A stretch of 52,977 nucleotides of DNA, the filler included, from Bipalium vagum (Eukaryota): NCBI GenBank assembly GCA_037834085.1. It is 3 parts of 3 records of this genome, joined end to end, with 100 filler letters (N's around TTAATTAATTAA, not from the genome) between each part and the next. Parts side by side here need not be neighbours in the genome. Positions count along the whole stretch, not along the records: positions 1 to 19,799 come from JBBMKC010267571.1; 2 more parts are not named here. One strand, 5' to 3'. Under the pieces are notes generated by a model. It ran no database searches. It was not told the origin of the DNA and was given only the letters and a program-made list of their open reading frames with translations. Made by a program: the position numbers and the translations under genes. Positions 1-19,799 of this stretch are shown here, in pieces. Each line of letters begins with the position of its first letter. The stretch's first letter is position 1.

Positions 1-604
1 AGAATAACTTTTATTTAAATTCAGCTTAGAATCTAAGATTTTAAGACTTTTCTTAACGATTAGCAGTATTTGATATCTTAGTAATATAATATAAACCGGC
101 TTTCAATTGAAAATTGTAGGACTGGTCCCGATTCATATTAATTGTTATTATATAGTTTAGTTCTAAATAACCAAACGCGTCATGTCAGACAAGACTCAGT
201 TTGCAGTAACGAATATTAAATAAATTCTCAGGCTAAGACCTGAGTATCAAATATTTTTTGAGCTCTTTTCTTAGGTTTTTTTTGTTCATATTTCACACGC
301 TAAGTAGGACGGTAAAATATATTTGTTTTTCTTCACTGAGGACCTCTGAGCCTAAGAGCGAGAGGATGTTTATAAATAATAACTTTAATTAATAAAATTA
401 TATTCGGTCAGAATTGGTATCACTCATTTGTAATAAAAAGTTTTAATTCGATTTCAATAAAAGTATTAAACCTATCTCGTTAATTTAGTTCATTTAAATA
501 ATTTTAACGAACACAACCTTTTGCAACCTTCAACCGTTGAGACCTAAGTTAAACTCAAGCTCCGACTTTTAAAATCATTTTAACCACCCACTTAGGATCT
601 TAAC
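1..604 (+). mobile_element. LTR-like repeat, copy 1 (probably a solo or 3' LTR; 5' end outside the window)
   Basis: Reverse-complement homologous to 17225-17860 and 19352-19799; block 338-367 is 30/30 identical to 17458-17487. The layout is LTR-like: palindromic blocks, TATAAATA at ~371, AATAAA at ~433 and ~456, and a ...TAACA end at 604. No primer-binding site follows. Confidence 0.6.
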
Positions 605-1249
605 AAACCGATAGAGTTAAATAAAATAATTAATTAATTAATTTTCTTGTTTTGAAATAAATTTATTTTTATTTATGAAAAGAGAATTATTTTTGTGAAT
701 ATTATATGTATTTTTCAAGAGCATTTAATAAATCATACAAAATCGAAAAATCATTGAAAACAAAATATAAAGAAATTGCAAAAAATATAAATATGGCATT
801 TGTAATTTTAATTTAAAACAAAATCAAGTCCCTTTTTATAAGTACTAAAACAATCAGGATGATTTTTTAAGGAATATAAATGTGATAGAACATAATAGAC
901 AAAACATTTATGATTGTTATTTCAAATATATAAAATATAAGTTTATTTAAATGGTGACTTATATGATGACCTTACTAAAGATTTGTATGAATTTAAACCT
1001 ATTTTAATTGTATTTATATATTTAAAATTCTATCCAGATCCTGGAATTTTTTTTCGTCTATTTTTATTTAACTTTAAAAATAATTATTTTACATTTTGTT
1101 TTATTTATTATTTTAATTGGTTTTGAATAAAATGTAAATCATTATATTTATCATTTTTTATATTTACAAGTTAATATTGTTTTAATTTAAAATATTTTAT
1201 TTATTTCAACATATTGAACTCTATCTTCTGATCATTAAACTGCGTTAAA

Positions 1250-3190
1250 TAAGTCCATTATCCTCACACACTAGAAGAATCTCTAGTTTCTGACTCTGAC
1301 TACAGCGATCGATCTGATAAAGACTGCAATTATGCAAATGCCACCACTGACTCAGTTCCTACAGCTCAGTTCCTCCAACTTAAACCTCTATGAAGCTGGC
1401 GAATCCTCTGAAACTCTTTACACTGCTACCTCTAGAAAGAATTAAGTGCAATAAATGTGACAAAATCTACTTGATCAAAGAATCACTATCTGCCCCTAAA
1501 ATCACTCTCTTGAAAATCACAACACAGTAATAGATGAGTTCACCACCTTTCTTTGCTTCTGTTGCTCACTCTCTATGACCCTTTTCTGCTTTACAATAAA
1601 ATCGATGCTTAGAAAAATCTCAACCATAGAAAACATCTGACTTTCAACGACAAAATTCTGACTGTCAACACGAAATTCACAATACTTTCCTACACTGATG
1701 ATCTAGTTGTCTTTTGGGCTGATTCTAAAGAAATTGAACTAATTATCGAACTGATCAACAAAATCAACCTAAAATTTAGACCGAGTAAATGCGGATAAAA
1801 ATAGGATAGATTTAAAATTATATGAAGAGATTATCCCAAAATATCTTTCGAACAAAATACTTACTTCTATCTAGATATCCTAATATTTGGCCATCAAAAA
1901 CAAAAAAATATTGAAAAGATACCTGAGGAAATTATTAATTATTTTAAAATTATATGTGACTCTGACATTCACTCAAGCCAAAAAATAAATTTTTATAAAA
2001 TCTTCCTCCAATCTAAACTAGATTTCCATTTTTTCAAATAAAATTATCAATACTCAAACTCTATCATCAAAAAGTCAAAAGAAAGCTAAGGATAAAAATA
2101 AGGATCACGGTTCTGATGAAAAAATTATGGAAATAATTAAAAATAAAATCACTGATAACTACTCTCAGGGAACCAACAACAATTCTATCTATTTACCTTC
2201 AAATCTTGGTGGCCTTAATATTAATAAATCAATAGACGACTATAGGATATTCATGGACTTAAAATAATGAAACAGTGAAGACTTAACTTTAGGAACTTTA
2301 TAGTGACTAAGCTAATTTAAATTGTAGCCAAAAAGAAAAAACTAGAAAACTCAAAAGAAATTTAAAAAACTGTAATGACTAAGCGATAGGATAAGGGCCA
2401 AAAGGATCTTGCTGGATTAAAATAAGATTAAAATTAATAATTATAATAAATAACAACAATAAGGGTACTAAGAGAAACCTATAAAATAGACTTTGACTTT
2501 CTAAAGCTCGATGGTGAACTTAGGAACGCAATATCTCTAAACTGTTTTAACAATTGGAAAGCAAAAACAGCTCAATGTCTTCTAGTTCACCGATATTGTC
2601 TAAGTAATAAATCAAATAAAATTATTAATAATACTGATTAAACGATAGGCAATGACACTTTCTAATTTAAGCACGAGAGAATATTCTACCTCTATATTAG
2701 AAACCCAAAAAAATTAAGCTAAGCTCCCACTAATGTGTAGGAAATGCAATATTAATGTAGAAACTCAGGCCTACATCTTAAATAACTGTAAATTATTCCT
2801 CTTGAACAAAAATATAAAACTTAAAAATGTATTAGCAGTCTGTGGAAATTACTTAAGAGATATAGAATTCAATGTAGATATAGACTTAAAACGAATTGAG
2901 ATTAAAATATAACTAAACTAAGGCCAGATCTAATTATTAGAGATAAATAAAAAAGGCCACACAACATGGAAATTAACTTTAAGAATAAAATATAAAAATC
3001 TAAGCTTTCAGGTAAATCAAATTATAAGATTTCAAATATCACTAGATACAATCGTTATTAAAAAAAAATGACACTTCCCTTAAAAATATAGGTTTAAATA
3101 GAACTCAAATCAAAATACTGTAAAATTTATTAATTAAAAAGGGAATCCAAGAGTCATTCTACATAAACCTAAATCATGTATATAAGTAAA
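1250..3190 (+). mobile_element. Decayed RLE-class (R2/NeSL-like) non-LTR retrotransposon
   Basis: Motifs occur in the expected order across stops and frameshifts: ILSYTDDLVV (1691-1702, RT YxDD), NLKFRPSKC, IYLPSNLGGLN, CRKCNINVETQAYILNNC (~2736, CCHC-type knuckle) and LRPDLII (~2921, PD-(D/E)xK restriction-like endonuclease). Confidence 0.8.
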
Positions 3191-3999
3191 ATAAAACTAA
3201 CTTTGAATCTCTTGAAATATAAAAAAACTAACTAAAGCTTTTTTTGGTGCTTTTAATTTTTATTAAAAAAAACTTTATTATTACAATATTAACCTTAGCC
3301 ATAATTGTTATTAATTATGAACTTAATATACTAAAATATTTTTTCACTTAAAACTGACTTTATAATAGTATTCGACATTCCAAGATCTCTAATTACACGT
3401 AAGCCAAAATCAACCTATTAATATAACTTTTGAAAACATTATAAAGTATGACACTTTAATAACTACTAATAATTAAAAGTAACTTCTCATTACTTCATTA
3501 GACATTACCAACTTTCAATTTTAAGTCAACCAAATTTGTAAGAAAAATTTTTTTTACTACGTCTAATATTTAATAAAGACAATACCCTGTTCAAAGCTGT
3601 ACATAGTATCTCTCTACGTTTTCTAAATACAATGCACTATGTTATTGATAGTACTTTTACCGAAATCGAAACCTTAAAACACGACATAATCTTTCTTTGT
3701 CTATTTATTTTTGATTTAAACTTTTTTCTTTTTCTTTTTATTTTTTACTATCTCAGTTGATAAGCCGACATAGGAATAATAAAACAAATGGTTAAGTATG
3801 AAATATTAGCTATATAAATTTGAACAGAAGTACTGCCGTATCTATTGAATCATTAACCTGTAAATCTTTATTAAAAACCATTACTCTTAATATCATTTTA
3901 TTCTTGATTATATTATGTATTAATCTCTGTTCTCTATTTTCTTTATCAGTTTTCCACTCCATTCCTCTCTCAGTTAATAAATATTTAGAACATATTCAA

Positions 4000-4940
4000 A
4001 TGAGCGTTGATGGCAACCAAAGCAATAAATACAAAAAATCAAATTCAATATTCAAAACAAAGGAAGAAGATGATACATGATGCATATTTTCCCCGAACGA
4101 GGCTATTTATAATCTAGAACAGGTTCCGAAGAAGTGTTATAATTGTCACAAAATGCGACATTTGGCAAGTCAATGTCGAGTACCAAAGAGAGATTCTAGT
4201 GTGGGCCGAGATGAAGACCCTAACGTGGTACCAGATGTAGTTTGTAGAAATTGCAATGAGGTTGGGTATTTTGCAAAGGTATGTAAAATAAAAGTTTGTA
4301 AACATTGTAATAAAAGAGGGCATTTAGCAGAGACGAACGAAAAATCTACCTTAAAGAGATAATGTAAACATTGATAGGAAATTTCAATGTTTCGAATGCA
4401 AACAATATGTCTTAGTAAAAAGACTTCACAGAAGGTTGTAAAAAAATTGGCATTTTGAAATGCAAAAGTTAATGCTGTACGAGATATGAAGGATGAAGAT
4501 GAAATGGAAAGGTTGAGAATAGAAAATGATGAGTTGAGAAGACAATTAGCTAGGATAACTGGTTACGGAACAGTATTCATGATGAGATGTCAAGAAAATG
4601 AAATCAGAGTGTTGTCATGGAATTATTCTTTGGAGGAAAGAGTGGATACAAACGGCAATGTGCTTATAGCGTTGCTGGGTGTAGACCAAGAAGACTCTGA
4701 CTGAATTCCTGAAGGAAGGATCCAAACACAGTGCGTCCGCAAGAAATCAGTCAAGAAAGTAGGAGGATCCTACGAAGAGAGTATCTAATCAGATTGGCTG
4801 AAAGATACAGAAAGCAGCATGAAGATTAAGAGTACGATGAAACAACCAGAAAAGATCAAGATAGATTATTGTGATTGTTGGAGTTAATGGATCCAGGTAT
4901 GGAGACAACAGGAGAACCAGATGATTTGACCAGATGATTA
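4000..4940 (+). pseudogene. Decayed gag/nucleocapsid-like ORF with tandem CCHC zinc knuckles
   Basis: KCYNCHKMRHLASQC, VCRNCNEVGYFAKVC and VCKHCNKRGHLAE, plus a further broken CFECKQY-like knuckle near 4390. A coiled-coil-like stretch follows (4486-4704). Stops and frameshifts are present, and no introns are evident. Confidence 0.65.
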
Positions 4941-5292
4941 ACCTCTAAAATGAACTTAAAAGAATATTTTATTATGTTAATAATATTTGATTTTATACTC
5001 ATTCAAATTACTTAAGAAAATTATCAAATTTATTTAATATAAATTAAGAGTAACAATATATGAATTATTTGGAATATGAAAACCTTTAATCCCTTCATCT
5101 AAATTATAATGGTTATAATTGGATAATTTATATAATTAAGGTTGATTTACTTATGATTTTTTAAATTTTTAATGTAATAAAAAAATATTTTAAAATAATT
5201 AGTTTAAATCAATCTCTATAAATAATTAGATTTGAATTTTATATTATAAGATATTAAATTTTATTTAAAATTTTTTTATTGATATCCTTATA

Positions 5293-8200
5293 ATGATAAC
5301 AGGTAAATTTATTCAATGAAAACTCTAAATTCAATTTTGATACAACAGATAGTAAATTAAGTTTTTGTACATGCGGGCCTTTTAGACCAAAATGGATGAA
5401 AATGGTTGATAATATATATAAATCCAGTCCCAATGTATTTGAATATTCAAACTTGATCATAATCTTATTTTTAATGAATAGGATAATTCTAGCCACAGCA
5501 AATTGGTATATTTCTGTGTTCGAAAGCCTGAAAAACTAGACAGAATTGCTGCCTATTTGCAACATCATCTATCTAATAATCTGAATCGAAAAAATTATAT
5601 GTAGATTATTTTTAAACTTGATTGTTATTCTCATGTAATTTAAGAAATTTAAATTTAACAATGGATGCAATAAATTCGTTAATGAATGCTTGTCACACAC
5701 AACGATTGAATTTATTTGTTGTAAACTTCCTCAAAATGATCCAGTTATTATTAGAAAGTAATGTTCCAGATCTTCAATTGCTTGGCGGGCGAAGTGTAAT
5801 TAATTTTTATGAAGAAATATCTCACTGGAAACTAAATACATTTATTCAGTTTGTACAGTTTTCACAGATTTCCGAAGACACACCTAATTATCACAGAGAA
5901 TATGATTATTTAATTAATCATTTTGCTAAAATGGCCCATGACAACAGCGCAAACGAATCAGACAAAAACAAGTAATCAACACTTTTGTTATAGTCAATTC
6001 TCTGTAGTGTCGGTCAATAAAGTCTGTTTGTGTGTGTGCTTGCCTGAGTAATGATGAATGTGATAATTTGAGTAATAATTGACAGTTTAGACATCCTTAT
6101 TCACCAAAAAACGTCGTTATCGAGTGAATGATTTACTTACTAAAAATAAATGCTTTTTTCCATTCAATCAAACTAATAATTCAACATTTGTCTTAAGCTT
6201 ATGTCTTAGTTATTCTTACGGTAAATGATTTTTGTTTTTTCCAGGTTACGAGTGGCCGGTATCAAAGGAATCTACGGTGTCGTTCGGAAATCGACAATGG
6301 ATCAACTGCAGGCAAATGTTTTGGACGGACGATGTCTGAACATGATTTTACCGGCTCTACTATTTAATATGCACTTACCAGAGTGAGTACTGCTTTTCTC
6401 TTTTGCAAAATATACTCGTTCATTGAATTTTCTGAAATCGATTTTTTTATCCAGTCCCAATACTCGAGAGGACAGCAATTTTGACGAAGATCCATCAACA
6501 GAAGCCATATTCGTTTTCAAAGATATTATTTGTCGTGCTTCTTTCAGCAACATTCAGCCATTGATCAGCACTATTTTCACGTGAGAATTATCGATTTTAC
6601 ATTTCCCCTTCTGCATCTTCCTGTCTATCTCACATTTTTTGCTAACTTTGTTTGACTGAGATTTTAACCTTCCAGATATATCGACCAAAACAAATTGTGG
6701 ACTCCTTCAGATTTTACACTGTTTGTCATGGACAATTTCCTGGAGAATATCAGGGTAAGTAAAACACGTAGCCTATCTAAACTTTTATATTTATATATAA
6801 ACAACGATTTTGATTTGTCCTTTTTTATTGACTTGCAACATAATATTAGATTGAATTGTTCATTTTATTAATTTTTTGTATGATCTGATTATTTCATAAG
6901 TCTTAAATTTAAAGATATTTTATTTACTATAGTGAATCAATTAAATTTTTTAATTAAAAAAAATCGATTTATATTTCATCGATCCATCAATAGTTACAAA
7001 CATTACTATTTTGGGTTTCTTTTGAGCATGAAAACACTCCAAACAAGTGAAAAGTAGATTATGTTGATCTGTCTATTATTCTCGGTTTACTAAATTGAGA
7101 TGGGTGAGATTCCATTCCAATCTATATGAGATTATTTCCCCGGAAAGATGGAAAATATATGGCAGTTTTTGGGTTGTAATGCTTTGAAAGTCAGTCTGGA
7201 AAATTGAAAACTCTCTTTCTGGTGCTTATTTTTTGCTAGTAATTAAATATACTCTTTCAGTAAATGCTCTATGATGGAATCTCTTTCCTTCGTCTTAGGG
7301 GATTTTTTCTGTATTCAACAAAATCGATTCACAAATTTACTATTTTAAATATTTATGAGAAAGAGAAATATGTATTTACAAGTGTAACATTTGGTTTAAT
7401 TTCATAAGTCGAATTGATTTTCAAATGTGAATATGAATGATTTTCTAATGGGTTTTGAAAAAAATATTTTAAATATTTTTTTTATTTTGATTTATGAGTC
7501 GTTTTCTTTATATCAGCGATAAACTTTTTTGACAAACGAGAAAATAATTGGCAAGATATATCAAAATTCACTGGCTGCTGATTTCGAGGATTTTTTAATG
7601 AAATATAAAATACTTTAGATATTTATATGATTATAAGAACCTGATTATATAATTGTGGTGGCAGTAATAATAATATTTCACAAACGTGAGAATTATTGAT
7701 TGCCATTGTAATCACTATTAAATGGACATTTAATATTTTCAGAATCCTCAAGCGGCACATGCACTAATGAAACAGCTCGTGTCACATTTGGGAAATGAGC
7801 ACCACCAATTCACGACTCAAGAGAGAACTGGAATTGTGAAGGCCATCAACAAAACTGTGATCTCATTGGCATCCCAAGCAGTGGGACCTGACATTTTCCT
7901 CAATTTTAAATCTTTACTGCAGGTAACATTTGATGGTAAGATGTGTTACAACGTTTGTTGATGGGTTGCCCTCTTGTGGCTACTTTATTGTAGATTCTTC
8001 GACAAAGTATAGAATCAACTGCGAATCAGCAATCATTGAGAAAAGCTGAGAATAAATCAATGAATACGGAAACTGGTGCAGTGGATCAATCAGTTGACAA
8101 TCAAGATTCCGAAAAGGTGTTCCAAGAAGCAATAATAGCAACGATCGCGGAATTTGCCAAAAATTTACCTGATACTCAAAAAATTGAAATTATGAAGTTT

Positions 8201-11200
8201 ATTCTAAATTTCGACTCAATGTATTTGTAAGAATTCACTTTATTGATAATAATATTAAAAATAATATCAATAACGTTTTAAAATCTTTGAAAATTATTGA
8301 TAAATTTTCTGTTTTGATAAAATAACTCTATTGGTATTTTGTTGAATTTTTAATTTATCGATCTTATTATATAATTAATTGAGTCTGTGTATGAATTCAG
8401 TGATAAAGCAAATCGATCTAAGCAACTGATTCGAGTATTATTGAAAACAATGTTACAGGTCGCTACTCAATACAAAACTGGATCGATTTCCAATATTTTC
8501 AATTCGGACTTTCTCAATTTACTCTTGAACGGAGTCGCAGTTGATCGAGATCCGGGAAATCGAATATTTGTTCAAAAAATCTTACACACTCTTATCGATC
8601 GACATAACAACTCGAGACACTTGAACGAGATCAGGTAGTGGACATAAACGGAAAATCGGTCCTCATTTTTTCATTGGCTGTTTTTTATCATTCAGAATTT
8701 ATACCAGAGAAAGCTTGTTGGATTCGCTCCAGATTCAGAAACCTTCTCGACAAGATATAATATTTATGAAAAAGGTGAACTGGGTTTTTATTCTCATTTT
8801 ATACTTAATCGGAGATACACTTTTATTTGATTGTAATTCTTATTTAAATATCACACTTTTCTTTAATAATGAAAATTTTGATTTTTTTATATCGGCGCAT
8901 AGATTAATTTGGTAATCAAAACAGAGATTCAAATTTTTAAGTTCGATATTCGTTTTTCTTCAGTTGCTAGGTAAACTACGATCCTTCATAGGCGTTTCTT
9001 TTATTGCAACCACTTTTCAACTTTCATATCTAAATGTTGACGTAAATGATAATCTTTGGAATTAGAGAAAACTACCTGATTTACTCAATAGTTACAATGT
9101 CTGATTTAGGACTAATTTTTATAAATATTTTTGCAAGGTGTACCTAGAAATATTTTACCATGATAATTCGTCATTAAAAGATTCCTTGTCGGCTTTTAAA
9201 CTTTGATCCCTTACTAAATTATAGATAATGCCAATTTGTTAAAAGTCTACTGAACTTCTCAATATTTTCCAGTCCCATGTTATTTATTGTACAGAGCAAA
9301 TAGTTGATATAGATTTTTTTTATGTGTATAAATGAAACACTTTAGATAAGTATTGATTTTTTGTGAATAAGTGCTAGTCAACATCACCCTTAAATGTTCA
9401 AGTATATTAAACAATGTACCCTCTTAGAAAATCTTGAAATATACATGTAACAGTTTCAAAGCAGTTATTAAATTTGTGATTAATGAGTCTTATTGTCTTT
9501 TATAATAAGGTAATTAATATATTAACAAAGTTCTTTAGTTTTATAACAATAGCTCTGATTTATCTGTTTGAAGTGATTCAAAGTATCTCAAGAAGGTAAT
9601 TAAAAACAAAATTTTCACCTGATATTGATTTTATTAATTTTTACCTTGACATAGGAAAAATACTTAGCTGTAATACGTTTATAACGGATTAAATTATAGG
9701 GCCGATTATTATCAAACAATATTAATTGCTTTCAAAAAAATTAATTTCATTTTTCATATTTGTTAAATTTTTATTCTGATTCGAATTCATTAATACATAA
9801 TAATTTTTCTAGACCGGGGCTATAATTATAGAAAATTTGTTTGTGCAGATAATCGACCAAACAAACAAAGTCGATAATCTTGAACATATTTATTGTACAC
9901 TGTGCTTGATTGCTCTTGAAATGGGTGCAGATCAGGTTTTAGAGATATTAATGATAATGACAAGACAATTAATTCTTGCCTTAGGTAGTGGTAGATTTGT
10001 TTAGATTGATTTTCGGGGCACAAAGCTATATATCTGATCCTAACAATAGAATGCCGGTTACTCACCAATGTGCCATTCATGCTCTTTTGGCTGCATTCAT
10101 AACAATGCTCTCTTTAATTGTTGAATTAAATAATGTCTATCAGCACTCGAATGAGGTTAGTTTCACGATCTTATCCACAAGAATCTTTCAATTTTTGGAT
10201 GGTTTATTGTTTAATGTTCATAATTCTTAAATAATCTATTTGATGTTTTATAATTGAAAAAATCTGGTTTCACTATTTATTTTGGTGATGGCGTAATTTA
10301 AATTATTATTTTTATTATAGTTTTGTGAAATTTTATTTATCACATAATTTATCACTACAAAAATAAAAACATGTCTAAACAAAAATTTGTTATTTAATTA
10401 AATCTTCTTTATTACTTTGTTCCGGTCCATATTTTCTAATGGTTTTAATAAGAGATTTGGATGATTGTGATAAATTGATATCAATAATATTATGATTGAT
10501 TATTAGTAAAATATAAAATTGAACCAGTAAATAAATTTATTAAAATATTTCAACATTGTGCTTGTAATAGTTGGAATGGTCCTCATACTAATTTGATCAT
10601 GTCCGGAAATGTGTGCATGAAATAGATCTAAAATTGAGATCAGAATAGGATTCTGGTAATTATCTAAAAATTCTTCATTTTTTATTGGATCAGAATAAAT
10701 CAATAATTAATCAGAGAATCATTCTAAAACGTAAATTTTTTTGATATGGAAAATACTTTTTAAAAAAATTATGATATCAATATCGAAGGGTGATAAAAGT
10801 TCAAAAATTTGATTTGTAATGGTCATTAGAAATTTATATTTATATTAAGTAAATATTTGATGTAAAATTCTAATTGAAATTTATTGATACGCACAATTAA
10901 CGAAATTGTGTTTGTATTTAACGAACGAGAATATTTGTTTAAAAAATAAACAAAATAAAGCCTTAAAAAAATAAGGATTGGAAAATATTTAGATCGGCAT
11001 TTGATGGAAAATTGTTATATTATTATAGATTGAGTTATTGAATTTCCTATTTATTGATTTATTGATTCGTGTAATTTACCAATTCAGGTAATACGTCTTA
11101 GACAAACAAAAGCAAAATATTTTCTTCCCGACCTCGCTTTCAATCGGTCAAATACTGCCAATATGTGAGTAAATATAAATAAATATTTCCCCATAAATGT

Positions 11201-14200
11201 AATTGGTCAATATTAGCTTGTATTTATGTTTTCTTATTTCACTATTTTGATAATCTCTTGATCGATAATGGTCTGAAGCGAAAGTATCGTAATAAATGCT
11301 CTGACTAACTTTTGTCATGAAATTGGATTTATTTTCACTCTCTTTTCAACCTGATACTTTTTTTAATACAAATTATATTTATTTGGTTCTAATTTTCATC
11401 GATTTTCTTGTTTTAAGATATCCTACTAAAATTGAACTTGATGAAAAATTGGTTTTTTCCGAGGCATTGGTTAAAGAGCAGTTAAACAATTGCGGATACG
11501 ATTTGTCGACATTCGATATACCCTTTCATGCTAAAGCCGGAGAGCAAAGGACACTGTTGCGTTAGTAGTTGATATTTATTGAACTGTGACAAATTTATTG
11601 TTACGTTAATGTAATTGTTTGTTTTAGTATCAGCCCCGAGGAAAGCATCCATTTTTGCCTGTTGGTTAAGTTCTAATTTAATTAATTGTGCACTGCCCAG
11701 CAGTGTCTCGCTTTGCCTTATAAACTTATTATATTCATTTCTTGATTGCTTTGACTCTTACATTTGGAATGGGCTTCAATTAGTAGTGAACCATATCCAG
11801 CTGTCGTGTGTATGTTTGTGTAAAACTTATTAATTGCGTCCTTGACTGTCCACTGTTAGTGAACAATTCTTGTATTGTTGGATGATGAATGTTTGACGAT
11901 GACGAAGCATGTAAACCACGGAACCTCTTCTAAATCAGTTTTATCCACTGAACTTAAGATAAACTTTGAATTGTCGAAATCCAAAAATTCCTATGACAGA
12001 AATGATTATTTGACAGTAATGAGGATCAATAATACTAATAATAAATCGATAATAATGAAAAATATTTTTTCATGAAATTCAGTTTCTTTAAGAATGATCT
12101 TTAGAGATTGTTGATGAAAGTTTTCTGGTATTGATTTCGGTTTTTAATATTTGATATTCTTATTTCACATTAATCCATTTTTAATATCGATTAGCTGAAC
12201 TAAACATTGATATGGAAACTTTGAATTTTGATGGAAATTGATTTTTGCACTTTTAAATCCTTGATTGGTATAATCTTGTAAAGAGTTCTTGAACGAACAT
12301 TCCATGGAGCTAATTTGGTCTTTTCAGAGTATTAAAAACTATTGTAGTAGTTTCAGTTAGTCAAAAAATATTTATGTGGTACATCTTGGTTAGAATCTGA
12401 GTGATATGAAAAGTTTGTTTTCTTTTTGTTTGTTGAAATGGAATTTTCAATTTTCTGAGATCTATCGAATTTGATATTGAAAGGTCTGTCTGTGAAATAT
12501 ATTGTTAATTACAAATTTTCTTGGTAAAATAAACTGAAACTTAGAAATTCTAATTAAGTGATCAGAAAAGAAAATAAATAATTTATAATTCAAATTTGTA
12601 TAGTACTTATTACCAATAAATAATACAAAAATGATAAAAATCTAAAGTTAAAAATTTCATTTATTTAACATTTTTAAATTAAATTTTAATTTATCAAGAA
12701 TAAAAATCAATAAATGTATGACTTCTTCTAGAAGACCCTTATGTCTTCAGATGTCCAAAATCATTTTTTGATTTCATTAACCAAGAGTAAAATTCAATTT
12801 ACCGAAAATTAAAAAATCAATAGATTATGAAAATTATATTTTAAGAATGAACTTTGAATTTTTTAAAAATAAAAGCTGAGCAATTCCAAGATATTTCAAG
12901 ATACAGAAAAGCTTATCTTGTCACATTTTCATAATATATGGTCATTAATTTAGGATCAAAATTGTTTTCATATAATATTTATCTATTGTTGACTTTGATC
13001 CAACCGATATGAAATCCAATTATCAAGTAAACCGTGATAAAATATTTATCGAAATAAGACCAAAGATTAATTTTGATCTCTGTCCAGATAATGGCTCATT
13101 TATTATTCAAAGATTAAATTTACAAACACCTTTATTTTATCCATGGGGAGAAATTCTTACAACTTTATTTTCTAAAATGTGTAAATAAAATCTTTGATAA
13201 AAAAATCGTACAAATAATTTATAGAAAACAACTTTAAAAAAGAACGATGGAATGTTTGTTTGTTAACGGTCGTGGGTTTTTCTAATCTTTTTAAAATTAA
13301 TTTATGACAATTATTGAATTTCATAGACTTTTTGCTTCCTTACATTCGTGACATTTTTAAGATTAATTTTCTAATTTTAAACATTATCGGATTTTATTAA
13401 TATTTTATTCACAAAAACAATTTTCAGTTTCTTTTTCTTATTGCCTTTCTTTTTCAACTCTGAAAATTAAATAAAAACTGGATCTTGGAAATTGTTTAAA
13501 GAATTCAATCGATTTTTTTTCTATGGAGTTTAAAATTCAATTCTTTTTCAAGGCGTCATTTGGTTTGCTTTAAGCAAAAGTTCTTTTTTTAACAGATTTT
13601 ACGAAATAATTCTTGTATTCATATCTGTTGTTTCAAGTCATAGGAAAATTTTCTTTTTCTAAAAACTGAGACAGGTTCTGCAAAAATATATTCTTGTAAA
13701 CAATATTTTAAGAACCAAAAGTGCCTTTATTGTAGAAACTTAATTTATTATTTTCAATTTTTTCCTTTCTAAATTAATTCTGCCAATTGTCTTTAATTAA
13801 TGAGTTGTAACAAACTAATCAAAAATAAGAATATCTTTAAGCCACGTTTCAATATCTTCGAACATGCTTATTCTACTGAATAGCAGATTTGAAATTCTCT
13901 GTTTGCTGATAATTGACCTAGTCTTCGGAACGTTTGATGATGGTTTTAGATGATCTTTATGCAATTATGCCACTAAATCGCAATTAATCTTCATTTATGC
14001 ATCTAACTTTGCATTTTCGTAGTTGCATATACATTGTTATAAATAATGTAACTTGTAGTGCTTTTATTTGCTTTCAATTTGTCAGTTAGTCTAGTTTTTA
14101 CAATTCAAATATTTAGAATTAATATATTATTATCATTATTATTATTTTCTAAATTTGCGGACATATATTTGTGTTGTTTTAATTATTTTATCCTTTCTGT

Positions 14201-14881
14201 TCTTCCTTTCATTACTTTCAAATAATAAATAGTCGGCACTAATCTGTTTGTTTTCGTTGACAGAGTTAAACGGTATTGGCAATATTTTAGATATGGCTCT
14301 CGACGAATTTCACGAATTGCCAGACTTATCAGTTTCCACGACCAGTCTATCAATCTCTGACAACGACAGTACGATACACGAAAATGACGATGTTCGTATA
14401 CATTTCTACCTTTGTAAAAGCTTTACTTAAGTTGATTTAGAAAACGATGACTGAAAACAACGACAATCCTTGTAGTTTTGAGTCCTTTCAGAAATTATTG
14501 AGTAAGTCTTGTTGAAGCTTGTGTCTCATGTGACGACTGTTGCCTATTTTTTGTTTTAGAAGAAACATCGGATGAAAGGAAACAACGAAAGCGCAACAAG
14601 GAAATTGAGATGAACAAATATTTCCGCGAGGTAGGTTTCGAGAAAATTTGCAAAGACGAACGGGAAAAGGTAACCAATTTTTGAGTGGCGAGGACACTAA
14701 ATTGGACTCTTGTTTATTTTTTCAGTACATCCCCATTCGGCAAAAGTTCCTAGAGGTTCTGACCAATTCTCCTCGAACCAACGAACGATACGGCACCGGT
14801 GAATACTATGAGAACGGGTACATTGCCAGCGATGTGCCGGATATTTGGGAAATCGATTATCCCAAATTGTTTGTAGCATAA
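5293..14881 (+). CDS. EFR3: Protein EFR3 homolog (PI4KIIIalpha plasma-membrane scaffold), ~839-857 aa
   Basis: Phase-consistent GT-AG exons: 5293-5302, 5349-5434, 5482-5600, 5645-5795, 5850-5971, 6245-6382, 6455-6580, 6676-6754, 7743-7922, 7994-8220, 8401-8634, 8696-8774, 9813-9935, 9985-10155, 11088-11164, 11418-11560, [11628-11660, 13922-13942 uncertain], 14264-14391, 14441-14501, 14560-14669, 14726-14881. Recognised motifs are FCTCGPFRPKWMKMVDNIY (N-terminal Cys), PEKLDRI, EDTPNYHREYD, AGIKGIYGVVRK, LIDRHNN, RQDIIFMKK and the C-terminal VPDIWEIDYPKLFVA. Confidence 0.93.
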
Positions 14882-14896
14882 TAAAATTGAAATAAA
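14880..14896 (+). promoter_or_regulatory. Candidate polyadenylation signals of EFR3
   Basis: AATAAA at 14880-14885 (overlapping the stop codon) and at 14891-14896, followed by GT/T-rich sequence. Confidence 0.45.
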
Positions 14897-15447
14897 AGTG
14901 TTCCATGTTACAGCCGAAAGGAGTTTTACTTTAGCGAAAATGTGATTGGAATTGTCATTGAGTGCACCTTGTAATTTGTGATGCGAATATTTTCTATTTG
15001 ATTTTTTATCCATAATTGTCCACGCGGAATAATTATAGAATGACGCCAGATTTATAACGTTGCATTTTATTAATTTATCGTACTTGATGAACGAGCCATT
15101 TCAGTGGTCATTCAATGTATATTATTACCGGAAATAAAATATTATTGTTTAGATTGTTTTTTCCTGTTATCTTGTAAAGTTTCGGTTATCATTTTCTCTT
15201 CATCGATTAAAAACAATGGGGATTTCATGATAGCGGGAGTTCACTTTTTCCCCATTTCTGAATTAGGAAACATGAATATAGGATAAAATACTAATAGGGT
15301 AACGATAAAAAATATGTAAAATTGAATGCAGGAATTTATAATATCAATTTATTATAATAATGATTTTGTAAAAGCTATATGATTTATATGAAAACAAACA
15401 GCAAGATATTTTACCGATCATACGAGTCTTCCTTTAACAGGCCGTTA

Positions 15448-15476
15448 TCCGTCGGCCAGGATCGACGGAAATTTAG
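15448..15476 (+). mobile_element. Possible Helitron-type 3' terminus (GC hairpin + TTAG)
   Basis: The hairpin TCCGTCG-GCCAGGAT-CGACGGA stands out in AT-rich DNA and is followed by AAT-TTAG|T. Confidence 0.35.
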
Positions 15477-15862
15477 TATTAATAAGAATTCATAATTATT
15501 GGAATGTAAGTTTTTTTCTACCGACCAACTGAATGAAACAAAATAAAAAGGTAAAATATGAATATTTTTTGTCCAACAGTAAATAAATATGAAAATTAAA
15601 CATTGAACCAGAAGAATATTTAAGAAAAAACATTTTGCTTTTATGAAATGTAAATTTTTACCACCAAGAAATTTAAATTTATCAGTTTTATTAAATAAGA
15701 ACGAAATAGGAAATACGCAAAATTTAAAAATTGTCATAATATTGAAATTTTTGTCAAAATAAATAGACGTAAAATTTGTTTTTATAATAAAAATGACCTA
15801 ATTCATACAAAAAGAATATGTAAAATGTGTTAAAAAGTCAAGCAAGAAAAATGTAAACACAA

Positions 15863-17016
15863 CAGGGATTTTCATTTAATTTAGTCAAATGTTCATTTAA
15901 TTTAGACAACATTTATTGTGAAAAGTTTTTAATCCATGATCACTTCTTTTCTTGCACATCTTAACAGATATTTTATCATATATTTATAAAAACCTAAACA
16001 TTTATTGCTTGTAATAGGAAGAGATGTCCACTTTGCTAAAATCTCCTCAATCGGGTTTAGGAAGGAAGAATAAGGTGTTAGATAGACACATTGATACCCA
16101 AGTTCTCGTATTTTTTCTTCAGCAAGTGAAGAACGGTGAAATGAAACATTATCCATGACAATAGCTGCCTTAACAACACTACAAATTTGTAGCTTCACAT
16201 GGAGGTTATTAAGAAAAGATATAATTTTCTGTATTATAGGCATTGACTTGATTTTCAAAGTATAATAGTCCATCAACATTCATCTCACAGCAATAGAAGA
16301 TATCTCTTGATCTGAATCCTGAAACATTTAATGCTGCCGGTGAACTCTTCAAAGAGCATCCCTCTCTTGAGCACATGAAAGCATAAAAACCAACTTCATC
16401 TATAAATATTATTTCATTCTCTTTACAGCAGAAATTATATCCAAAATGAGGCTGAATAATCTTCTCTTTTTAAATGTTGAGGAGGTAATTTCGATGTTCA
16501 GGTATTTTGTTTATTCTTTTAAGGGTATAATGAAACCATTTAAGACTTCTATAGGCAGTTGTTGGTGATATTTTAACCCCAAATATTTTCATACATTTCT
16601 GTTATTTTTGCCAATGTTAAAGCAATTGGCATCAACCCATTATCGAATTTGTGCTTCCTCTTCCTCACTTGTAATTTTGGACGATGAGAGCCTTTTTATC
16701 TAACTTACTACTACTAGTGATCTGGTTTTTCTTTATAACTGAATACCCCGTTGATCGTTTCAAATCTAAAATCTTTGCAATATCCGAGGGATTTTAGTAG
16801 AATTCATAATAATAATTTTGGATCGTAAATCGTCACAAATCTGCTACATTTGTATTAAAATTAGGAAATTATATCACATATATACATGCAATTTTTAACT
16901 GTTTTTTATTTAGAAATATAATAAATATAAGTAATGATAAACAACAATATTAATAATTATAATTGTTTTGACTAAATTAAATGAAAAATTAGAAGGTTCT
17001 GATCTAAATATCCCCC
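15863..17016 (-). mobile_element. IS630/Tc1-superfamily DDE transposon, decayed
   Basis: Minus-strand motifs IIFIDEVGF, IVMDNVSFHR and YLTPYSSFLNPIEE. There is a perfect 21-bp inverted repeat at 15869-15889 / 16967-16987. Confidence 0.85.
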
Positions 17017-17224
17017 TATTTGTAAAAAAAATTAGAACCTAAAAATTTCACCTAAAAATCTTTTTGTTTAAAAATAACATCTATATAAAAACACTAAAAT
17101 ACGCATTTAGTACAGATAAAAATATAAATTTGATAAATGAAATAAAGATAAAAATATATGAATTATCGGTTACAAACCGTCTTTGGGACAATTTTTTATA
17201 TGCATTGAAAAATTTTAATAAGCA

Positions 17225-17860
17225 TGTTACGATTCTAAAGGATGGGTAGATGTTAAAAGTGGAGCTTAATGTATTTAGGTCTTAACGTGTGAAGGTTGCT
17301 TATTAACGGGTTCGTTAAAATTAACTAAAATGATTGAGAAAACGATTTGAATTTTAATGCTTTTATTTTGATTAAAATAAAGTTTAAATTTACAAATGTG
17401 TGATATCAACCTTGATTGATTTCGAAAATATTTTATTAATTAAATTTATTAAGAAAAATCCTCTCGCTCTTAGGCTCAGAGGTCCTCGATTAAAGAAGAA
17501 TAATTTATCTCACCGCTCTACTTAGCGTATAAAACAAAAACAATAAAAAGAAAAAGGTAGAAAGAGCGGAAAATAAAAAATTATATAATCCTCAGGTCCT
17601 GGCCTGAGGAGTTATTTATTTATTATAGACAAACGGTGCCTTGTTTAACAAGACACGCCAGTTTAATTATTAAAAGAATATAGCAAATGAAATATCAATC
17701 CTATATGAAATTGTTATAGAGCGATTTTAAATTAGGAATTTTACTTTTTTTTAATTTAAGAATCGAGCTAGTCTTGATAAACTTTAGTTTCAAGCTAATT
17801 ATTATTATAATTATTATTGAGTTTTTATTTTATAATAAATTTTGATACACAAGTGTAACA
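17225..17860 (-). mobile_element. LTR-like repeat, copy 2
   Basis: Bounded by TGTTAC (17225) and GTAACA (17860; an alternative end lies at 17930). It shares all conserved blocks with copies 1 and 3. No clean target-site duplication (AGCA vs AGTT). Confidence 0.6.
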
Positions 17861-18025
17861 AGTTGTGATAAACAATATTTTAATTTATTATTATTAAATA
17901 TTATAAAAACTTTGTTACACTATTGTAACAAGTTATTAAATAAAATACTAAAATAAACCAAAAATTACTTTTCAAAAAATCTCAAAAAGCATGAACCAAA
18001 TTTTATTTTATCAATATATTTTCTT

Positions 18026-18422
18026 TATTTTTGTTCCTTCGGACCACTATATATAGAACTGAATTAATAATCATTATTAATCATTACAAAATTTGTTATA
18101 GAATTAGAAGAACCTAATATTTGAATTGTTTCTACTTCTGTTGATTCTAATCTTAAAGTTGCATTTGAAAAAAAATAAGGAAAGAAATTATTTTGCAATG
18201 TAATATTTTCATTTGCTTTTATATCTTGAACTTTAATTTCAAAAACTAAAAATGCTCCTGTTAAATTTAAAGCATTTACAGTTGGTAATAAACTAAAATT
18301 TAATCTTTTATTTTCATGTAAATTTGAAACAGAAGTAGGATTTAAAGAGATTTCTAAATAATCACATTTTTTGTTGATAAATCTTGATGGTAATAATTTT
18401 TTTCTACATTTAAGGAGCTCAT
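18026..18422 (-). pseudogene. Polinton/Maverick-like major capsid protein (double jelly-roll), N-terminal relic
   Basis: Translation ...LNLTGAFLVFEIKVQDIKANENITLQNNFFPYFFSNATLRLESTEVETIQILGSSNSITNFVM resembles the NN...FS...L...(I/V)E.I...G pattern of Polinton major capsid N-termini. It sits next to, and on the same strand as, the packaging ATPase. Frameshifted near the ATG and truncated. Confidence 0.6.
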
Positions 18423-18444
18423 TTTTTAATAAAAAAGTGAGAAA

Positions 18445-19200
18445 TTAAGATTTTTAAAAAATAAAAAGTATTTTAAAAGTAGATGACAATATAACTTCAT
18501 TCTCTAAATTTATAAAAAAATAATTATATTTTTTATACATGTGAAAATTAAATAAATAATCAAATTCTTGTTTTTCAATAAAATGAGATAACATTTTTAA
18601 ATAAATTTGTGATTTATCATTTTTAAAAATATTTAAAAATTGTATTATTTCTTATACTTCTTAAAGACAAATCAAAAAATGATTGTGATAAATAAATAAC
18701 TGAACATTTATTATGATACCTTCCTCTAGTAAAATAAATATTCATAATGTGTTGATTTTTTTCATTTATTACATCTTCAAAATAATTAAATTTTTCTAAG
18801 TTATTTAATTTATCAGCAGGCTGAATTTCATTTGCTTTATCAAATAATATCACCTTTATTTTTTTTCTTTAAATTCAAAATCAACAGCTTCATCAAATTT
18901 TAGTTTTGTTTTTCTTTAGACTTTTCATAAACATCATTTTTTGATAATCCACAATCAAAACAATCTTTAATATATTTAATAGCTGGTTGATTGAATACTG
19001 TTTTAGAAATAATTATAAGATTATCATAATTTAGGTAATTTGGAGTTAATATCTTTTTATATAACAATTCTGTTTTACGAGAACAACTTGGTCCAATAAT
19101 AAACATTCTAAAAATTCTTGGGAAGTTTTTGTGATTATTAGTTGTCTTAATCTTAAAATTGTCTTATCATCTAAAATATCTGAAAAAAATTATCATCCAT
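18445..19200 (-). pseudogene. Polinton/Maverick-type A32/FtsK-like DNA-packaging ATPase, decayed
   Basis: MFIIGPSCSRKT (decayed Walker A), VILFD (Walker B) and YFTRGRYHNKCSVIYLSQSFF...SIRNN (GRH/SQ/RxN signature). Several frameshifts; no introns. Confidence 0.85.
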
Positions 19201-19238
19201 TTTTTAATATTATTTTTAAAAAAAATAAAAATAATAAA

Positions 19239-19351
19239 TTATTCAGTTTGTTTGAGGTGAATAATAAAACTAATTTCTTTTGCATTGAAATCAATTAATT
19301 CTTTATTATCATCAATTATTTTAAATTTTATTGCAGAAATATATTTTTTAT
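19239..19351 (-). pseudogene. Polinton-like minor capsid (penton) C-terminal fragment
   Basis: YKKYISAIKFKIIDDNKELIDFNAKEISFIIHLKQTE* fits the I.I.D...IDF.....HLK end of Polinton minor capsid proteins. It lies directly upstream of the ATPase and is cut by LTR-like copy 3. Confidence 0.6.
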
Positions 19352-19799
19352 AGTTAAGTTTTTCTAAGATTGGGATGGAATTAAAAAAATTGTTAATTAT
19401 CGGAGCTTAATTAACTCTTAGGACTTAACGGTTGAAGATTGCTTGCAGTTGTGTTCGTCAAAATATAAATTGATTTAAATAAACTGAGATAACGCTGTGA
19501 GTTAAATACTTTTATTAAAATCAAATTAAAGTTTGATTATACAAATGAATGATACCAACGTTGACCGATTAAAATGAGTTTATTAATTATGGTTATTATT
19601 TATAAAAAATCCTCTCGCACTTAGGCTCAGAGGTCCTCAATAAAAAAAAACAAGTATACTTCACCGCCCTACTTAGCGTGTGAAATATGAACAAAAAAAA
19701 CAAAAGGTAACGAGAAAAAGGTATTCAAAAAGTTACTTGATCCTCAGGTCCTGGCCTGAGTATTTAATTATTATTAAGTTATACAAACTGTGTCTTGTC
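19352..19799 (-). mobile_element. LTR-like repeat, copy 3 (truncated by the assembly gap)
   Basis: Same orientation as copy 2. Block 19609-19638 is 29/30 identical to copies 1 and 2, and the hairpin CTCAGG-TCCTGG-CCTGAG lies at 19743-19760. Confidence 0.6.

Follow-up and report, generated by a model that had tools for sequence, protein, structure and literature searches.

A broken Maverick/Polinton capsid module between two Burro-like Gypsy LTRs in Bipalium vagum, probably a product of nested insertion and decay

We found that a broken Maverick/Polinton capsid module in the genome of Bipalium vagum (GenBank assembly GCA_037834085.1) lies between two LTRs of the same orientation. With a probability of about 93%, this arrangement is best read as nested decay, in which a Maverick/Polinton relic received separate insertions of two Burro-like Gypsy elements and later suffered a deletion. 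Separate insertion of two LTR elements of different subfamilies is the most likely origin of the flanking repeats, and a deletion likely fused the older LTR (copy 2) to the gene for the major capsid protein (MCP). The module sits at the right-hand end of a 19,799-base contig, JBBMKC010267571.1, which in its entirety forms positions 1-19799, the first of three joined stretches, of the DNA analysed here (the window; 52,977 nucleotides, filler included). The source is a short-read, highly fragmented assembly of 441 Mb in 272,664 contigs, whose AT content and Burro-like elements fit a planarian host. The features that bear on the argument are as follows.

168 to 605, plus strand: LTR copy 1, 5′-truncated, of another subfamily; inverted, at a distance of 17 kb along the contig
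15516 to 15860, plus strand: broken Maverick pPolB fragment, motif A region, outside the LTR pair (tblastn 42-63%, DNA matches 72-83%)
15864 to 16988, minus strand: decayed IS630/Tc1-like DNA transposon (DDE_3, PF13358, E = 5e-9; relatives at 76-83%; 21-bp TIR)
17003 to 17220, no strand assigned: short unclassified dispersed repeat (many matches at 70-88%; both orientations in locus L138)
17225 to 18065, minus strand: LTR copy 2, a Burro-like Gypsy LTR reduced to its 3′ 841 bp (TGTTA end; nearest copies at 88-91%)
18067 to 18422, minus strand: N-terminal third of the MCP gene, frameshifted near its start (64% to the MCP N-terminus of another copy)
18454 to 19200, minus strand: A32/FtsK-like packaging ATPase pseudogene (52-54% to P0001)
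19239 to 19351, minus strand: last ~36 codons of the minor capsid protein (mCP, penton) gene (70% to the C-terminus of P0151)
19352 to 19799, minus strand: LTR copy 3, 3′ end, running off the contig end (94-96% to four other copies)

Other sequences on the contig include exons of the host EFR3 gene to the left of the Maverick relic (5622-11565, plus strand), a gag-like zinc-knuckle fragment (4081-4362) and, near the polymerase fragment, an exon of a membrane-protein-like host gene without a Pfam match (14750-15100, minus strand). Depth over the unique module pieces was ~20, that of neighbouring single-copy DNA, in one sequencing run that may be the assembly's source; among the listed contigs of that run, no piece bridged each LTR-module joint.

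An earlier note on this DNA had described three co-oriented, intronless, decayed minus-strand ORFs, and six-frame translation indeed showed three such frames, all of them broken. The ATPase frame has an ATG at 19200 and the MCP frame one at 18422, and the mCP frame ends with a stop at 19241-19239. Since a Pfam scan of the window's own gene fragments gave no significant match, we worked out the identity of the genes via homologues. The module belongs to a large family in this genome (scoring of the best 40 among 2,532 candidates gave identities of 71-86%; the other genome searches likewise scored the best 40, of 85, 51 and 6499 candidates). The ATPase is 52-54% identical to P0001 (238 residues), which itself matches Pox_A32 (PF04665, E = 3e-11), as do, at E ≤ 0.001, 10 of the 12 database homologues scanned. 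It is a pseudogene with several frame changes and stops, and its Walker A motif is degenerate (GPSCSRKT versus GPSGSGKT in other copies). The MCP remnant covers ~118 of ~400 codons (the gene spans ~1.2 kb in two other loci, L125 and L131) and is 64% identical to the N-terminus of the MCP in copies whose downstream parts match PF21738 (E = 1.7e-9, 5e-9 and 1.3e-8, above the cut-off); MCP pieces used as queries in two word-based protein searches gave no match. The MCP frame had been drawn to 18026, too far, because homology stops at ~18067-18070 and positions 18026-18065 are LTR sequence. For the mCP remnant, identity with the C-terminus of P0151 (258 residues) is 70%. A low-confidence model of the mCP family (pLDDT 52) matches the pentons of mavirus (E = 1.4e-6) and of a MELD virus (E = 3.7e-9) and also resembles those of Sputnik and adenovirus; its Atlas neighbours are viral, and a PDB sequence search with the mCP profile returned no match. 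The assignment of the three frames to a Polinton/Maverick single-jelly-roll minor capsid protein, A32-type ATPase and double-jelly-roll major capsid protein is thus borne out by the homologues: these are real genes, all broken, and no working protein is encoded at the locus. At most, the upstream LTR might drive read-through RNA. In the closest long relative of the module among the scored matches (82%; L002:1629-2484), the start of the ATPase is joined to an unrelated proline-rich ORF.

The repeats in the window are the 3′ ends of LTRs of a Burro-like giant Gypsy family and belong to different subfamilies. Same-orientation copies on both sides of the module, clearly divergent from each other, with copy 3 the closer to copy 1, had been noted before, and the alignments agree: copies 2 and 3, starting at 17225 and 19352, are 73% identical over 403 columns, and copy 3 is nearer to the inverted copy 1 (77%). 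The repeat is longer than the ~600 bp first assigned to it, as copy 2 can be aligned with its family along 841 bp (17225-18065) and whole solo copies measure 0.8-2.5 kb. Other family copies continue to ~1.8-1.9 kb, copy 2 lacking its 5′ part of ~1 kb, and the contig end at 19799 truncates copy 3. On the plus strand, copies 2 and 3 start with the family boundary TGTTAAG (the first base of copy 3 is A, a T in its relatives) and other copies reach a second boundary, CTCCACA; read on the minus strand, the unit therefore runs from TGTGG to TTAACA, with TG...CA ends. A perfect 4-bp target duplication flanks seven of the eight solo copies with both ends located. The LTR end followed by TGG matched 155 times, versus 3 for a control pattern, and a primer site (TT-TGGTGAG...) was present in 15 of 30 fetched LTR-end loci, themselves drawn with the TGG-biased pattern. 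This site pairs with the 3′ end of a genomic tRNA-Trp(CCA) at 17 of 18 positions, the terminal CCA being assumed.

The sequence downstream of the LTR encodes a Gag with CCHC knuckles, a fusion glycoprotein, ankyrin repeats, protease, RNase H and integrase; bodies in Gypsy order, with env-like and ankyrin stretches between gag and protease, occur at L185 and L194/L219, and no reverse transcriptase match was found among the 13 ORFs scanned. The long-bodied loci are 67-78% identical to the window LTRs, and L201, in the clade of copy 2, has the primer site. At two loci a viral fusion glycoprotein (PF24664, E down to 1e-23) is encoded between gag and protease (L194:2527-4106 and L198:2915-3661). 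In a tree of 42 LTR segments, copies 1, 2 and 3 fell into three clades, those of copies 2 and 3 with a support of 100/100. The relatives of copy 2 elsewhere reach 88-91%, and copy 3 groups with four copies at 94-96% (clade 100/100); its subfamily appears to be the younger, and copy 3 the youngest insertion.

The term Burro-like reflects agreement with a published layout. Burro/GYPSM1 elements, described from planarians (Arkhipova and Yushenova 2019, PMC6431247), are LTR retrotransposons of the Gypsy group and of giant size, and the elements here share with them, as far as excerpts of that account go, a gag with several CCHC knuckles, an env of the fusion-glycoprotein type placed between gag and pol, ankyrin repeats, protease, RNase H, integrase and 3′ accessory ORFs, plus a SUMO/ubiquitin-like stretch that is a weak match. 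By the same excerpts they differ in that BIR, BCL2 and MATH domains are absent from the scanned ORFs and that the bodies, partial here, look shorter than 25 kb; the window itself holds LTR remnants only.

The two joints between LTR and module are of different kinds. Both outer genes were said to be truncated at or near the repeats; the truncation stands, and "near" can be dropped, since both are cut exactly at the repeats. At the right joint (19352) the LTR terminus directly abuts the mCP gene, as an insertion would give. At the left joint (18065-18067) the LTR breaks off after 841 bases and meets the MCP gene at about codon 118; by our own reading of the alignment, the break falls shortly upstream of a TATA-like motif, as seen on the strand of the element. 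Because neither side of this joint is a natural end, we infer a deletion that followed the insertion of copy 2. No primer site directly follows copy 2 or copy 3. The earlier note held that joints unique in the genome would refute a captured cassette, and a search for recurring repeat-capsid junctions found none: none of the 39 other scored matches spans the left joint (best 40 of 85 candidates) or reproduces the right one (best 40 of 51). One match extending 15 bases across the right joint is copy 3's LTR subfamily abutting the ATPase gene elsewhere (L055/L215), at a different position. Among 29 module loci that reach a breakpoint with flank, the MCP gene runs on past it in 20 of 20 and the mCP gene in 21 of 22, and at 59 module loci on 56 contigs the module flanks were free of this LTR family. 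Nesting itself has a positive control in L072, where the MCP gene is interrupted by a solo LTR from the subfamily of copy 2, with MCP sequence on both sides and the target duplication ATTC. Copy 3 runs into the contig end, so that its far-side target duplication and any continuation of the mCP gene would lie beyond the contig. A pattern search for this far junction gave 5 matches, versus 3 for the control, which is chance level, and all 5 were devoid of LTR and Maverick DNA; one locus with a suitable start for the far side, L098, has no adjoining LTR.

Maverick DNA also lies outside the LTR pair. The earlier note had missed a pPolB fragment at 15516-15860, which is 42-63% identical by tblastn to polymerase ORFs of other copies; those ORFs match PF03175 (E = 6e-12 and 1e-10). 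The fragment faces the MCP gene in convergent orientation, as in eight other loci (L021, L132, L135, L136, L137, L152, L218 and L220), and is separated from LTR copy 2 by 1.4 kb of repeats, namely the Tc1-like element, with an inverted 21-mer at both ends, and the short repeat. From order and orientation only, we infer that the pPolB fragment and the capsid module derive from one Maverick copy. The same eight loci have lost the facing 3′ ends of the polymerase gene, the MCP gene or both, at various breakpoints, a loss that the window copy shares; it may reflect a deletion-prone region or a sampling effect. No Maverick element end and no retroviral-type integrase are present in the window. In two other loci, L139 and L135, integrase-like ORFs stand next to the capsid block, and a related piece in L227 gives only a weak rve match (E = 0.009). 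ORF pieces recurring upstream of the capsid block may, by their motifs, be protease-like; they have no Pfam protease match, and a search of the genome for an adenovirus-like cysteine protease (PF00770) gave no match, its control being likewise silent. At six loci (L125, L128, L129, L126, L005 and L238) a polymerase of another, clearly distinct type accompanies the same capsid block or lies near LTRs of this family, and one piece of it has an endonuclease VII-like match. This suggests that the genome harbours two Maverick groups or that a polymerase was swapped.

We considered whether a one-off ectopic rearrangement or repair event could have put the module between pre-existing LTR relics, the polymerase fragment stemming from another Maverick copy. 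A left joint that is no natural end of either element and shows a few overlapping bases (the matches meet at query 35-40), the 1.4 kb of other repeats next to the polymerase fragment and the off-contig far side of copy 3 would all suit such an event. The facing order of polymerase and MCP genes, shared with eight other loci, and the exact coincidence of copy 3's terminus with the mCP cut speak against it, and we regard it as improbable.

The note had also raised capture, in which an LTR element would have taken up and moved a viral capsid cassette; the cassette would then be cargo between the two LTRs of that element. Such an origin would account for two LTRs of the same orientation, co-oriented with the genes, and for outer genes cut at the repeats; moreover, Burro elements carry extra domains and an env-like gene, according to excerpts of PMC6431247, and so do elements in this genome. 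Yet the LTRs are of different subfamilies and 73% alike rather than near-identical, the would-be 5′ LTR has no primer site, the left joint falls inside an LTR, the cassette amounts to just a third of the MCP gene and the mCP tail, neither junction recurs among the scored matches, and Maverick DNA, including pPolB, continues beyond the pair. Capture is therefore very improbable, and the independent insertion that the note favoured is the model supported by separate subfamilies, unique junctions and Maverick DNA outside the pair. A precedent for the fusion of a transposon with a dsDNA virus, which capture would resemble, is the piggyBac-herpesvirus Teratorn (PMC10175614); in the excerpts of that work Teratorn is a repeated composite, whereas the composite described here is a single occurrence, with fragmentary parts and mismatched LTRs. 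If capture were true, a retroelement would have moved a dsDNA-virus capsid module, and no LTR element with a Polinton capsid module on board is described in the excerpts of the literature consulted.

We give equally little credence to the broader idea that env-bearing giant Burro-like elements transduce Maverick capsid/packaging DNA and that this locus is an old, since-recombined example, in which case a retrovirus-like element would carry the virion module of a dsDNA virus. At another locus (L185/L218; G000:C15724, ~9,990) a Burro-like body with primer site, gag, an env-less stretch, ankyrin, protease, RNase H, integrase and accessory ORFs runs straight into a 6.6-kb deleted Maverick. We rejected this joint as a true capture, as none of the 39 other scored matches spans it (best 40 scored); it is likely nesting plus deletion.

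That the repeats are Maverick terminal inverted repeats is least probable of all, as is an assembly chimera: copies 1 and 3 are inverted and 19 kb apart, a Maverick-sized distance, and the contig comes from a fragmented short-read assembly, but the repeat shows the marks of an LTR (TG...CA ends, 4-bp duplications, a tRNA primer site, and a gag further downstream), is absent from the flanks of all module copies (0 of 59 loci), and has the host EFR3 gene between copies 1 and 3. We rejected these two copies as Maverick TIRs.

Nested insertion and decay would have proceeded in five steps. A Maverick would have integrated and decayed; the Tc1-like element and the short repeat would then have entered the relic; LTR copy 2 would have inserted and then likely become a solo LTR; a deletion would have taken both the 5′ part of this LTR and the final two thirds of the MCP gene; and LTR copy 3, the youngest, would have inserted into the mCP gene.

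The relic agrees with known Maverick/Polinton (adintovirus-like) elements in its pPolB, A32 ATPase, double-jelly-roll MCP and penton genes, which are intronless, and in the two opposite-strand blocks that face each other; within the family, putative integrase-like and protease-like genes, both weak labels, may be a further resemblance. It differs from known Mavericks in having no TIRs or integrase in view, and from those of vertebrates in that the ATPase, which there belongs to the polymerase block, lies between the mCP and MCP genes on the capsid strand. In excerpts of the respective reports, 96% of vertebrate Mavericks are eroded, degraded genomic fossils (Barreat and Katzourakis 2021, PMC8097293), both Polintons and Burro are piRNA targets in Schmidtea mediterranea (PMC8532177), and planarian rearrangement breakpoints are enriched in Gypsy elements (PMC11410931). 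We found no paper on a Maverick capsid in Platyhelminthes in the portions of the literature consulted, where supplements could list planarian Mavericks, and no flatworm passage in the portions of PMC8502044.

The locus is ordinary genome debris, one more fossil of an abundant, decayed Maverick family, and Polintons and Burro elements have both already been reported in planarians. Its use lies in annotating the Mavericks and the Burro-like LTR subfamilies of this genome, and in relative dating, by which copy 3's LTR subfamily would be younger than the decay of the Maverick.
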